Notes: generated by a model from the sequence alone, not told the origin. 64,000 bases of DNA from an uncultured Isosphaeraceae bacterium (GCA_964507445.1 CAZDQF010000017.1:28613-92612), one strand, 5' to 3'. Counted from the stretch's first letter, positions 39,758 through 45,556 are shown. Numbers and translations: made by a program.

Positions 39758-42700
39758 TCAGCCGCCGCCGCCACCCGCCGCCGGATCGGGAGCGGTGACG
39801 CGCTTGGTCCCGGGCTCGTTGGTCACCCGATAGACCTTCCCGTCCTTCATGTAGAGCTTCTGGCGCTCTTCCAGGTTCATGGGGCGCCCACCGACGCGCC
39901 CGAACACGGCCACCTGGTTGCCGCTCTCGTCCACCGCCCGATCACGGTCCAGGGCCTTGCTGATGCTCATGGCGGGGCCGTGGGTATGCCGGTGGGCGAC
40001 GGTCATGGGGAAGGGCCGTGGTGTCCAGCCGAAGGCGCTGCGCGGCTGCCCATCCCCCGGAGACACCAGCTCCACCACCTTCAGGCCGTTGTGCCCGTCC
40101 GCGAGATAGGCGAACAGGCTGTCGTTGGTGGTGGCCACCTTGACGTCCATGAGGTCGTCGATCTTGCCCCCGTCGGTCCACTCCATGAACACCTCGGGAG
40201 CCCTGGGTCGGGTCACGTCGACGATGACCAGCCCCTGCCTGCCGCCAGCCACGTAGGCATAGGTCTTGGCAACGTAGACGGAACGAGCATCCGCCAAGGG
40301 GACGGTGGGCAGGGTGGCGGCCCCGGTGTTGGCCTCCGCCATGCGCATGGGGTCGGTGACATCCAACACCTTGAGCCCGTCAGCGTCCGTGACGAAGGCG
40401 TAGCGGAACTGGACATCCACCGACGTCGGTTGGCTGATGTGGGGAGCGCCCACCATGGACAGGATCTGGGGAGCCATGGGGTTGCTCACGTCCACGGCCA
40501 CCACGCCCTGGCCGCAACACACGTAGACCGTCTCACCGGCCACGGTCAAGTTCACGGCGCCGTTCAGGATCCCCCCCGGATTGAACGTCACGGCTCGTTC
40601 CAGGAAGTTGTTCTGGGGGTCCCCATCCGTGAGGCACTCCACGTCTACCAGGATGAGCCCTTCGTGACGATCCGTGATGAAGGCGTACCGATACAACGGA
40701 TGGAGGTTGCCAACATCCGAACCTTCCGCCTCCGGAGGCCTCACCTCCTTGTTCTCAGGCCGGTACAGGCGGTTCATGCTGACCGGGTTGTTGAACGCCA
40801 GCGCCACGGCCGTGGCGTCCATGGTGGGCACGTGGGTGTCCTGCCCCAGGGGAGACACGGGAGCGGTGACCAGGGGTTCGCTGAAGTCCTTGTTGGCCAC
40901 GTTCGCCACGTCGTAGACCCGGAATCCCCCTTCACCTGAGGCCGTGTAGAGGTACTCACCGCGGAGCTGGACGCTGCGCACGTCCTTGCCGCTGTGGTGA
41001 TGATGAACCGACAGCTCCTTGTCGTGGCCAAGGTGGTGCGCGTAGTTCTCCGGCCAGGCCAGCCGGTGGAGGTTGGACCCGATCACCGCCTGGGGCTCGT
41101 ACGACTCGGAGACCTTGATGGCCTCGAAGCCGTCGTGGCCGGTGCCCACGTAGGCGTGCAGTCCCATGAAGCCCACGGAGTTGGTCCCCAGCAGGTAGGT
41201 CTGGGCCAGCCAGGCGTTGTTGTCCTCCGCCTCGGAGACGTGGCAGTCGTCACAGCTCCGGGTCTCGGTCTTGCGCACGGTGTGGGGGAAGTGGGTGTTG
41301 AACGCCTGACTCGAGTACCCCGGCGCCGAGATGGTCGGCTGCTGGACGTAGATGAGCCGGCGGTTCGCGTCCTCAGAGGAGATCATGACCGCGCTGGAGG
41401 AACGGACCGGCGCGATCTTGTTGTCCTTGACGTCTCCGGCCACACCCAACATGAACTCCGAGTCCCGCACCACCTGGGGGTTGTAGGTGCTGTAGTTGCG
41501 GAGCTTGTCGCCCTCGTAGTGCTTGACGTCCACCTTGATGTTCCCCCGTTGGGGCAGGTGGCAGCCGAAGCAGGACGTGATCCAGGAGGTGTGACAGGAG
41601 TAGCACTCCATGTCCTGGTCGTTGTGGGCGAGCTCGCACTTGTCGTCCACCGCTCCCCAGGTCTTGCCGTCCCGGCGGACGGTCTTGGCCCAGTCCGCCT
41701 TCTCGTTGTAGCTGTCGTGGCTCGGGTTGACGCTGTCGCGGACCTGTGACACCGCCCAGCTCTTCCCCTGCTCCACCATGGACCGCTGGATCAGCTCCTT
41801 GCCGTCCCATTCGAACCGGCTCTCACCCCAGGGAGTCTCCATGTCCCCGAGTCGGCGGCTGTCTTCTGACGCCGCCGGGCCCGACGCGGCCTTGTCCAGG
41901 TCGGCGTAGCCTCGCACGGTGCCGTGGCAGTCCTTGCACGTGATCTCGATGGCGGCCTGGTACTCGTGGTACAGCTTGCCGTTTCCGTGAGAGTCGCTGA
42001 GGAAGTGACAGTCCACGCAGTGCATCCCGACCTCGGCGTGGATGTCCTTGAGGTGGACCGCGCGCCCCGCTTCGGGGGTCACGCTGCCGCCGTGACCGGC
42101 CATGGGGATGACCCCCTTGAACTTGTCCGGGTCGTCGTAGTCCACCAGGTTCCCGTCCTTGTCCAGGAGGTTGCCTTCGCGGTCCATCTTGAAGGCTGCC
42201 CGGAAGATCCAGCCGTGGCCGTGGTAGTCGGCGAACTGGGTGTGCTTGGCGTTGGCGTTGATGGACGTCATCTCCGCCAGCAGGGCGGGATCGATCCAGT
42301 TTCCTCGGGCCGCCGCCTCCTCGGGGTTGCGATCGAACGCCGCCACCAGCTCCTCGTGGCTCGGGTCCTTCTGGATCTTCGGCCACAAGGCCCGACCGTC
42401 CGCTCCGAGGGCGTCGCCGTCCGCCTCGTAGGCCCACATGGTGAAGCCGTAGAACGAGTTCACGAAGGAGTTGGGCTGGTGCATGTGGCAGACCATGCAC
42501 TGGCTCGAGGGGATGGAGCGGGTGAACTTGTGGGCGATGGGGTGCCCCGGCTCGTCCTTCTTGATGGTCGGGTCCGGGTTGTCCGCCGCCGTGAGGCCGC
42601 GGTTGCCGTGAGCCGAATAGGCGCCGGAGTGGACCGGGCTGCGATCGTTGGCATAGACCACGTGGCACGCGGTGCAGCCGCTGGAACGGAAGTCCCCAGG

Positions 42701-43630: not shown

Positions 43631-45556
43631 CTACCAGGTGAACGTGAGCTCAGCGAACGCGTGCCACAGCAGATCGTCGCTCTCGTAGATCTTCCGCAAC
43701 CCACCGCCGGGCCTGAGCACAGAGCCACCGAAGGTGAAGATGATGTTGTTGGTCAACAGCGGCCGGTACTGGACCCCCATGAGGGCCTCCACGCCGATGT
43801 CACGGGGGATCTCCTCCAGCTCCACCAACGTCTCCAGCGGGTTGGTGGTGGCGAAGCGCAGCCCCTGAATCGCGGCCGTCATCTTCACCGTCGGGGTGAG
43901 CTCGATGTCCGTGCCGATGCCGTAGATGGCGATGCCCGGATTGACGAACGCCGCCTGCCCCTCGAACTTGGACGCCTGCAGGTCCGCCAGCGGGCTCAGC
44001 CTGTTGGTCAGGAAGGTCCCGAACAGGGGCACCGCCTGACGGTTCCAGTAGGAGAACTCGCCGCCGGCGAAGTTGGGAGCGTCCACGATGGCGTCGAATC
44101 CGCCGCCCTTGCCGTCTCGCGCGTCGTGGTCGCCAGACCCGTAGAACACGTAGGCCTTGAGCCGGAACCAGTCCCAGTCATAGGAGACCTCCACGGCCGC
44201 CAGCTGCGCGTCGATGTCGATCTCCCGCGCGGCGATGGGGTCTTCCGTGTCGTGCCCCCAGACCTGGTAGACGGCCCCCGTGAGGTTGAAGCGTCCGATG
44301 TGGCCGTCGAACGCCCACCCCAGGTAGTAGGTGTCGATCTCGTGCTCCTGGAAGCTCCCGATGGGGGTCGGTCGCGTCAGGAAGTCGTTGTCGTTGAAGT
44401 GGACCCCGCCGCCGTCGTGGCTCCAATGGAACGACAGCTCCTGATTGAATCCCTTGAAGGGGAAGTCGAAGCGGTAGACGTTGGCGATCAGCACCTCCTG
44501 GTTGCGATCATCGAACGTGTTGAGCTCCGAGTTGGTGTTCTTCTCCAGCAGGTGGAAGTAGGCCAGGTTGTACTGCCACTTGTTGTCGTCCGCGTTGCCG
44601 AAGATCCGGGCGCCCAGATTCACGTCGTCAAAGATGAAGCCTCGGAAGTCACTCCGAAACTCGAGGATCCCCGCCTCGAAAGACAAGAAGTCGTAGCGGT
44701 CGTTCCAGTCCAGCAGGTGGATCTCGATGAACGCTTCTTCCAGCGCGATGTCGTCGGTCAGGCGATCCGTGCCCTGCCCGGGGTTGATGTTGACCCCGCC
44801 GGTCTCTTCCAGGTTCAGGTAGGTGACGTTGGCGGCGAGGACCGCCTTCAACCGCCAGTCCACGGGCTTGAAGAACTGCTGGCCCTTGAAGATGTCGATC
44901 TCCAGGGCGGTGATGTTCAGGAGGAAGTCCTGGTTCCCGTCACCGAAGAAGGGCTCGTTGTTGGGAACGGGGCCGGTGTTCCCGGTGCCGATGGGCACCT
45001 TGCGCGTCTCCAGGATGGAGAAGCTCTCCAGCTCCAGGGAGAGGAACACGTCATCGCCGATGATGGGGTAGTCCCCCTTCAGCGTGTTCAGGTTGTACGG
45101 GTCGAGGGAGCTCTTCCCCTTGTTGATCACGTAGGCGGGGTTGAACAGGGGGACCGGGTCAATGGCCCAGCGATCAGGCATGGGCTCGAAGTGACGCGGC
45201 TTCTCCTGGGGAGCGGTCACCGGCTTGCTCTCGGCGACGGTCACCGGCTTGCTCTCGGCGACGGCCACCGGCTTGCTCTCGGCGACGGCCACCAGCTTGC
45301 TCTCGGCGACGGCCACCGGCTTGCTCTCGGCGACGGCCACCGGCTTGCTCTCGGCGACGGCCACCGGCTTGCTCGACGCCACCGGACGGTCAACCGCCAC
45401 GGGGTCCGACCCAACCCGCGAGCCCACCATGGTCGGCTCAGGATGCGGAGGGTCCTCCGGCGGGGGCCGGTGCCCAGCGCTGGAGCAGGCCGCAACCAAC
45501 AACACGCAACCCCCAAGGCACGACCGCCCCAGGAATCTCCGCGAGCTTGTATCCAT
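43631..45556 (-). CDS. Putative outer-membrane beta-barrel (porin-like) lipoprotein with an N-terminal (ESKPVAVA)n repeat
   Basis: Lipobox LLVAAC; a G/D/N/aromatic-rich body with alternating hydrophobics; C-terminal …AFAELTFTW-COOH, the aromatic terminus typical of OMPs. It ends 12 nt upstream of the lipoprotein cytochrome gene. Confidence 0.6.
   Translation of the reverse strand: MDTSSRRFLGRSCLGGCVLLVAACSSAGHRPPPEDPPHPEPTMVGSRVGSDPVAVDRPVASSKPVAVAESKPVAVAESKPVAVAESKLVAVAESKPVAVAESKPVTVAESKPVTAPQEKPRHFEPMPDRWAIDPVPLFNPAYVINKGKSSLDPYNLNTLKGDYPIIGDDVFLSLELESFSILETRKVPIGTGNTGPVPNNEPFFGDGNQDFLLNITALEIDIFKGQQFFKPVDWRLKAVLAANVTYLNLEETGGVNINPGQGTDRLTDDIALEEAFIEIHLLDWNDRYDFLSFEAGILEFRSDFRGFIFDDVNLGARIFGNADDNKWQYNLAYFHLLEKNTNSELNTFDDRNQEVLIANVYRFDFPFKGFNQELSFHWSHDGGGVHFNDNDFLTRPTPIGSFQEHEIDTYYLGWAFDGHIGRFNLTGAVYQVWGHDTEDPIAAREIDIDAQLAAVEVSYDWDWFRLKAYVFYGSGDHDARDGKGGGFDAIVDAPNFAGGEFSYWNRQAVPLFGTFLTNRLSPLADLQASKFEGQAAFVNPGIAIYGIGTDIELTPTVKMTAAIQGLRFATTNPLETLVELEEIPRDIGVEALMGVQYRPLLTNNIIFTFGGSVLRPGGGLRKIYESDDLLWHAFAELTFTW
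45205..45394. repeat. About 7 copies of a 24-bp tandem repeat (ctcggcgacggccaccggcttgct) encoding ESKPVAVA
   Basis: Read from the sequence; coding, in frame. Confidence 0.75.

Follow-up and report, generated by a model that had tools for sequence, protein, structure and literature searches.

Only for a few model systems (Mtr, Pcc and Cyc2) have envelope electron conduits been described in molecular detail. In MtrCAB of Shewanella and in the Pcc system OmaB-OmbB-OmcB of Geobacter, a barrel gene lies beside the gene of a decahaem lipoprotein and is accompanied by MtrA/DmsE-like periplasmic multihaem cytochromes. MtrB has 26 strands, which it needs to enclose MtrA, and OmbB has about 20; barrels of the MtrB/PioB family in general have 26-28. 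The same arrangement, with the same presumed role of bringing electrons to the cell periphery, is found in an uncultured Isosphaeraceae bacterium, in a stretch of 64,000 nucleotides (GCA_964507445.1 CAZDQF010000017.1:28613-92612; hereafter the window, with positions counted from its first letter). Here, a barrel protein and a decahaem cytochrome with an LVIVD beta-propeller form the conserved outer end of a larger electron-transfer operon of seven to eight genes. The pair shares no sequence homology with MtrB/PioB or the MtrC domains, and there is no homology of barrel or terminal cytochrome between this module and Mtr, Pcc or Cyc2. Unlike in MtrCAB and Pcc, the barrel has 18 predicted strands, the cytochrome is fused to a propeller, FHA and cNMP regulatory domains are present, and electrons would enter through an iron-sulfur/dihaem-b module and not through a quinol dehydrogenase such as CymA, ImcH or CbcL. 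The module appears to work like a porin-cytochrome module of extracellular electron transfer (EET), yet it is non-homologous to the known ones and widely distributed. The pair is encoded by two minus-strand open reading frames (ORFs) 12 nt apart, in a GC-rich region (65-70% around the locus):

43631-45556, minus strand: predicted 18-strand outer-membrane beta-barrel, 641 aa (AlphaFold2 model, Foldseek)
45214-45374, minus strand: 24-bp tandem repeat encoding the (ESKPVAVA)n tether (Tandem Repeats Finder)
39758-43618, minus strand: decahaem c-type cytochrome with LVIVD beta-propeller, 1286 aa (CXXCH motifs, Pfam)

Neither ORF, nor any of the features noted in them, arises by chance. The barrel ORF starts with an ATG preceded by the ribosome-binding site AAGGAG; the shorter starts picked by gene callers (565 and 591 aa) drop the signal peptide. 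A preliminary description of the locus had proposed a barrel-like protein with a lipobox, an (ESKPVAVA) repeat and an FTW end, and each of these elements was recovered. The N-terminus, MDTSSRRFLGRSCLGGCVLLVAAC-SSAG, is a signal peptide with the lipobox LLVAAC (Cys24). It is followed by a disordered linker, a conserved N-terminal extension (residues ~118-168), the barrel proper (residues 170-640) and the C-terminus ...LTFTW. The terminal aromatic residue is present in 40/40 aligned homologues, as T-W, T-Y, T-F or S-W. In the AlphaFold2 (AF2) model (mbf27cdf17601, from a 40-sequence alignment), 18 long strands are predicted, with a predicted local distance difference test score (pLDDT) of 85-97 over residues 170-640. 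A conserved and confidently modelled loop of 68 residues (474-541) connects strands 13 and 14. The structural similarity search of AlphaFold models suggested in the preliminary description returned a barrel fold headed by AlgE and OprD, not a soluble or non-barrel protein. Specifically, Foldseek against PDB places AlgE at ranks 1-16 (E-values of 3e-14 to 8e-13, target-normalised TM-scores of 0.56-0.65), followed by OprD/Occ porins (OccD2, E-value 6e-10), chitoporin and MOMP. Because of the modelled strands, the AlgE/OprD fold matches and the aromatic C-terminus of all aligned homologues, the 641-aa protein is best described as a predicted outer-membrane beta-barrel of the 18-strand class.

The barrel has no Pfam match even at E<=10, and hence none to MtrB/PioB (PF11854) or Alginate_exp (PF13372); it belongs to no NCBIfam family and has no real sequence match in PDB, where matches to eL29 merely reflect the low-complexity linker. 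No MtrB entry is found among its top 50 PDB fold matches, in agreement with the earlier claim that the barrel is not homologous to MtrB. More than 1300 homologues were found, none of them named, and a profile search of the whole library gave 1811 clusters at 50% identity. With AlgE and OprD/Occ the protein shares the monomeric 18-strand fold. It differs from them in sequence (9-13% identity to the fold matches, 11-13% to AlgE), in the lack of Pfam membership, in a redox context instead of polysaccharide or amino-acid uptake, in the conserved N-terminal extension and, in this clade, in the lipid anchor and repeat tether. The alginate exporter AlgE being the best fold match, one might take the barrel for an AlgE-type polysaccharide exporter, or for a general porin, functionally unrelated to the cytochrome. 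We consider this highly improbable and rejected a role in polysaccharide export on genomic context: there are no polysaccharide-synthesis genes in the operon or its flanks, the neighbours are all redox or regulatory, and the adjacency to the cytochrome gene is kept across more than 10 phyla. The missing Alginate_exp match also argues against such a role.

The N-terminal part of the barrel protein combines a variable and an invariant region. The variable region is the linker, in which a 24-bp unit is repeated 6.7 times (97% matches, score 301), and which has pLDDT <50 in the model. Only 3.7 copies are present in a contig that is 99% identical (L001, 8317-8405), and the length of the tether is therefore polymorphic within a population. 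A relative with 61% identity has an unrelated EEPKK-type linker instead. Homologues of 900-1143 aa (P0317, P0335, P0369 and P0365) carry N-terminal extensions of 250-630 aa with HEAT, fn3 or AMIN+SH3 domains, which replace the lipid anchor and repeat linker. Since the repeat number varies, a relative has a different linker and other homologues have different domains at the same position, the N-terminus looks like an interchangeable periplasmic or peptidoglycan tether, as these comparisons suggest. HbpS-barrel fusions, which would have been evidence of contact, were sought among the long homologues; none of the extensions is HbpS, and they are instead HEAT, fn3, SH3/AMIN or of unknown kind. Both the lipobox and the repeat linker are restricted to the closest clade and are not features of the family. 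The invariant region comprises residues 118-168 (PHFEPMPDRW...LKGDYPI), which are nearly unchanged among homologues, yet modelled as disordered (pLDDT <50). This pattern is typical of an interface peptide.

The second protein had been described as combining ten haems and an LVIVD propeller in one lipoprotein, and this composition was confirmed. Its lipobox, LFTSC (LVLFTSC-AES, Cys22), fits the pattern [LVI..][ASTG..][GAS]-C, as does that of the barrel. It has exactly 10 CXXCH motifs, located between residues 63 and 793 and all invariant in 39 homologues. The haem domain (residues ~63-793; window 41240-43432) contains 12 further histidines that are invariant in these homologues, enough for bis-His ligation of all ten haems. 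It is followed by the propeller (residues ~820-1270; window 39809-41161), which matches LVIVD (PF08309) with an E-value of 1.6e-20 (72.6 bits, cutoff 20.2). In the AF2 model, the propeller has pLDDT ~90 and the haem domain is poorly predicted (30-60); the fold search returned only generic propellers at the top (AztD, cd1 NiR, WD40). In the outer-surface cytochromes MtrC/OmcA, ten haems are distributed over two pentahaem domains (II and IV), and beta-barrel domains I and III flank these. PF22113, which covers domains II/IV of MtrC/MtrF, does not match the decahaem protein at E<=0.01. At the family level, the haem domain matches ExtM alone (NF040943; residues 521-689, E-value 2.5e-22), scoring 78.9 bits where the cutoff is 800. 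The decahaem-propeller family is very large, with 8000/8000 scored candidates being significant, and the cytochrome is the most conserved part of the module. Conservation is even along both of its domains and along the barrel, with no hypervariable loops in either protein. We also considered an identity similar to hydrazine synthase beta-gamma. That family has the architecture (0-8 haems) + 7-bladed propeller + C-terminal CCP/MauG-like dihaem domain (PMC12758564). Here, the ten haems all lie N-terminal to the propeller, with none beyond it, and Pfam and PDB gave no HZS or CCP match, so that this identity was rejected. Beta-propeller proteins encoded beside multihaem cytochromes and thought to act in the envelope also occur in D. 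ferrophilus (DFE_0451/0463) and in the uet cluster of Tenderiales; unlike the present protein, in which propeller and decahaem domain form a single polypeptide and which has a barrel as its partner, these are separate NHL-family proteins or are unlinked to haems.

Haem density separates the decahaem protein from the other cytochromes of the operon. Its haem domain has ~80 aa per haem, a value nearer to that of NrfA, MtrC and similar terminal reductases, versus ~30-40 aa per haem in the wire-like proteins with 17 and 15 haems. The low density and the enzyme-like conservation would fit a soluble or tethered periplasmic reductase of a small solute, such as an oxyanion, with the barrel merely serving as its substrate-specific porin. 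AlgE and OprD/Occ are indeed channels for solutes or polymers, and the ordinary type-I signal peptides found in most phyla imply a periplasmic default location. A precedent would be the Geobacter gene cluster extHIJKLMNOPQS, in which a small porin (ExtI), a proposed selenite importer, is encoded with multihaem cytochromes including the 12-haem ExtM (PMC5877670), the one family that the haem domain matches. For ExtI, too, solute import is one possible role (PMC5877670). Unlike the ext cluster, the present locus is without rhodanese, Rieske/cytochrome b and selenoprotein genes; ExtM has no propeller, and the match to it is partial. Moreover, the 32 haems of the membrane-anchored wire cytochromes seem excessive for a soluble enzyme, and no catalytic motif or open-coordination haem was identified in the decahaem protein, where the extra invariant histidines suffice for ten bis-His haems. 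The invariant disordered extension of the barrel also points to a protein partner and not to a simple pore. On balance, we regard a periplasmic enzyme with a substrate channel as unlikely, although it deserves serious weight.

The location of the cytochrome bears on another explanation, put forward in the preliminary description, in which the barrel provides a docking site for a decahaem-propeller lipoprotein located at the cell surface, and electrons pass through the barrel in a conduit analogous to MtrCAB or OmaB-OmbB-OmcB. All Planctomycetota members carry the cytochrome lipobox, even where a barrel gene is lacking, and propellers of the LVIVD and 'choice-of-anchor B' types are characteristic of surface proteins; both signs favour an outward-facing cytochrome. 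The strict gene pairing and the MtrA/DmsE-like multihaem modules within the same operon would also fit such a conduit. By contrast, most members outside Planctomycetota have plain type-I signal peptides, with no lipobox or recognisable surface-sorting tag, and these point to a periplasmic face, as do the porin fold and the evenness of conservation. The lack of hypervariable loops, unusual in surface-exposed proteins, weighs only weakly against exposure. Since the barrel lipobox is limited to the closest clade and the cytochrome lipobox to Planctomycetota, lipid anchoring is probably not part of the conserved mechanism. The barrel has the AlgE/OprD-like fold with a conserved internal loop and not a sheath of 20-26 strands. 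With only 18 strands and this loop, MtrB-like enclosure of a multihaem protein is implausible. Of the earlier proposal, the pairing of the two proteins in a redox operon holds, and the enclosing conduit in the style of MtrB/OmbB is unlikely; the surface-conduit explanation as a whole we consider doubtful, and slightly more so than a periplasmic enzyme.

The two genes had been described as a unit. They are conserved as such; however, they are only the first two of seven genes in a tightly packed minus-strand operon (window 45556-31724), and a conserved HbpS-like gene adjoins them. The order in the operon is barrel, decahaem-propeller, FHA protein, 17-haem cytochrome, four-His membrane protein, cNMP-binding/4Fe-4S protein and FHA-anchored 15-haem cytochrome, with successive gaps or overlaps of 12, 50, 2, -4, 2 and 1 nt. 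The same seven-gene order and the divergent HbpS-like gene are found on a 4.3-Mb ENA contig with independent gene calls. A scan of promoters and terminators gave no signal above shuffled expectation. The genes accompanying the pair are as follows:

45768-47498, plus strand: HbpS-like/GlcG-family secreted protein, 576 aa (Pfam, profile match, tblastn)
38196-39707, minus strand: tail-anchored cytoplasmic protein with two FHA domains, 503 aa (Pfam FHA, transmembrane helix)
36157-38193, minus strand: 17-haem periplasmic cytochrome with N-terminal signal/anchor (CXXCH motifs, Pfam)
35150-36160, minus strand: polytopic inner-membrane protein, 336 aa, with two putative b-type haems (hydropathy, conserved His)
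33672-35147, minus strand: cytoplasmic protein with two cNMP-binding domains and a 4Fe-4S ferredoxin module, 491 aa (Pfam)
31724-33670, minus strand: FHA domain, transmembrane helix and 15-haem periplasmic cytochrome, last gene of the operon (Pfam, CXXCH motifs)

Synteny was analyzed over 81 loci, of which 74 were informative for the adjacency of barrel and cytochrome. The barrel gene lies directly upstream of the cytochrome gene in 61/74 loci, with a median gap of ~44 nt, and this adjacency is found in Planctomycetota, KSB1, Ignavibacteria, Zixibacteria, Acidobacteriota, Nitrospirota and Binatia. In two loci, the genes of the pair are arranged differently. An HbpS-like homologue stands beside the barrel in 52/81 loci (tblastn), colinear in most phyla and divergent in a subset of Planctomycetota, which makes it the third conserved member of the module. 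The remaining components are found less often, namely the cNMP/Fer4 protein in 38 of the 81 loci, a further multihaem cytochrome in 41, an FHA-multihaem cytochrome in 23 and the membrane protein in 24. In Thermoanaerobaculia, a Pyr_redox+cNMP+Fer4 protein is followed in turn by the membrane protein, a FecR-domain protein, an FHA-multihaem protein, the HbpS-like protein, the barrel, the decahaem-propeller and a multihaem protein. The scan for the cytochrome matched at least 568 species-level genomes in more than 10 mostly uncultured phyla. Marine samples, for example JGI 3300007754, also contain the operon. Sequences with 52-60% identity between phyla span Planctomycetota, KSB1, Ignavibacteria, Zixibacteria, Bacteroidota, Acidobacteriota, Nitrospirota, Binatia and others. 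All homologues are annotated as "hypothetical", and a search seeded from an Ignavibacteria member likewise returned only 'hypothetical' proteins from metagenome-assembled genomes (MAGs). A full-text literature search found no description of the cluster; the MAGs OFTM205, OFTM356 and OFTM177 of Suarez et al. 2023 carry it, and that paper makes no mention of it.

Among the accompanying proteins, the FHA protein has two FHA domains (Pfam E-value 6.8e-27, in two stretches) and a single C-terminal transmembrane helix at residues 476-494, and hence is tail-anchored. A 15-bp unit repeated 19.9 times (38963-39261) encodes (KEAAA)~20 between the two FHA domains. This is a classic sequence of rigid single-alpha-helix spacers and would span about 100 residues. 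Homologues of the FHA protein are encoded downstream of the cytochrome in Planctomycetota loci. The true start of the 17-haem cytochrome is the ATG at 38193, 2 nt past the stop of the FHA gene (TGAccATG). It has 17 CXXCH motifs and matches Cytochrome_C7 (E-value 9.4e-28) and the MtrC/MtrF II/IV domain (4.5e-20). The 15-haem protein starts with the GTG at 33670, after the stop of the upstream gene, and carries an FHA domain (6.3e-12), a transmembrane helix (residues 160-178), 15 CXXCH motifs, a Cytochrome_C7 match (2.9e-22) and a match to the DmsE decahaem family (3.3e-17). The cNMP/4Fe-4S protein matches cNMP_binding (2.4e-35) and Fer4_7 (1.1e-9) and has neither a transmembrane helix nor a signal peptide; in other phyla, its counterpart bears an N-terminal NAD(P)H-flavoprotein domain (Pyr_redox). 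The 336-aa protein, with transmembrane segments identified by hydropathy, has the pairs His160/His174 and His315/His329, each 14 residues apart and situated in transmembrane helices. These four histidines are conserved in 29-30/30 homologues. The pattern is that of dihaem-b carriers of the ferric-reductase/NOX type, suggesting that the protein carries two b-type haems across the membrane. Its homologue in a Thermoanaerobaculia locus (L065) shows a sub-threshold match to cytochrome b561 (4e-4). Finally, the HbpS-like protein, transcribed divergently from the barrel, matches the HbpS-like Pfam family (2.6e-17), and its C-terminal domain matches EfgA/GlcG (PDB 6bws, 1.5e-9). The ...GTTLGC end of its signal peptide agrees with the PROSITE pattern for lipoboxes; the three proteins of the outer module may thus all be lipoproteins in this organism.

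Observed gene content, folds, motifs and cross-phylum synteny are the basis of the reading that we prefer. In our estimate there is a slightly better than even chance that the pair terminates, at the outer membrane, a dedicated electron-transfer chain that spans the envelope and is encoded in one operon, in which the barrel docks the cytochrome and passes a substrate, product or shuttle. In this chain, the cytoplasmic cNMP-regulated 4Fe-4S protein, elsewhere fused to an NAD(P)H flavoprotein, would take up low-potential electrons and hand them to the membrane protein with its two putative bis-His sites, in the manner of NOX and ferric reductases. The inner-membrane-anchored 15- and 17-haem cytochromes would then bridge the periplasm, and the decahaem-propeller protein at the outer membrane would act as the terminal oxidoreductase. 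The barrel would be its obligate partner, docking the cytochrome via the conserved disordered N-terminal extension and letting the substrate, product or shuttle cross the outer membrane. A role of the barrel as docking partner and/or channel is favoured because it is not plausible that a barrel of 18 strands, with a loop inside it, ensheathes a multihaem protein.

Several points weigh against this chain. The direction of electron flow and the acceptor enter it purely by inference, and haem b binding and docking are putative. Pfam support for the haem-b fold is below threshold (PF01794, the ferric-reductase transmembrane domain, with an E-value of 0.21 here and 5e-3 in the L065 homologue), and the haem domain of the cytochrome is unreliable in the AF2 model. 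Sequence and profile searches of PDB gave no solved relative of the cytochrome, the best hit being NrfA at a non-significant E-value of 0.16. Among the matches listed, no member is from a cultured organism. In 11 Planctomycetota-type loci, the cytochrome is present with no barrel within 10 kb, and the barrel is therefore not strictly required in cis. One such Planctomycetota variant (L021, 13859-16330; also L008, L013, L025, L030, L031 and L041), which has no HbpS-like gene within 10 kb either, encodes a Pyr_redox+FHA+2Fe-2S protein directly after the decahaem-propeller gene.

A more specific version of the proposed chain concerns the source of its electrons. No recognisable quinol-oxidising subunit is found among the operon genes. 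The closest parallels at the inner membrane are the eukaryotic NOX/FRE proteins and the bacterial MsrQ-type dihaem proteins, which share the two transmembrane His pairs 13-14 residues apart and, on the proposed reading, would also share a feed from a cytoplasmic NAD(P)H flavoprotein and a quinone-free outward path. In the present system, unlike in NOX, FRE and MsrQ, the flavoprotein/iron-sulfur part is a separate subunit with cNMP-binding domains, electrons would pass to multihaem c-type wires, and the Pfam matches are sub-threshold. We tentatively propose, with less confidence than for the chain itself and as a rather unlikely option in its full form, that electrons exported to the cell periphery come from cytoplasmic NAD(P)H or ferredoxin and bypass the quinone pool. 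The operon would then encode a prokaryotic multi-subunit counterpart of NOX/ferric reductase, extended by multihaem wires, switched by cAMP and by FHA-phospho recognition, and ending in a decahaem-propeller terminal reductase bound to an AlgE-like barrel and the HbpS-like protein. As judged from domain composition, the FHA and cNMP domains, and a cyclase in some loci, imply tight post-translational control. The cyclase, a CHASE2-domain adenylate/guanylate cyclase, is encoded a few kb downstream in Thermoanaerobaculia (L065, 15256-17577; equivalents in L042, L045, L057 and L074). It may supply the cyclic nucleotide that the cNMP/iron-sulfur subunit senses.

If the operon encodes an electron-export chain, surveys of iron and EET genes based on known families would miss the module, and a large unseen share of environmental bacteria would be added to the electron-exchanging ones. 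The module would also be a tractable candidate for biochemistry, with defined parts and regulatory inputs. If the quinone-free version is true, uncultured Planctomycetota, Acidobacteriota, KSB1, Ignavibacteria and others could owe a capacity for regulated extracellular reduction to it. Metal or humic reduction, reductive iron acquisition and the production of extracellular superoxide would be candidate activities.

Two further observations concern ORF calls in the window. The minus-strand ORF at 29383-31119 (578 aa) was judged by its composition to be a spurious antisense ORF. Very long antisense ORFs also lie over real genes, for instance a plus-strand ORF of 1267 aa at 41924-45727 and many others; these are artefacts of the high G+C content and not genes.

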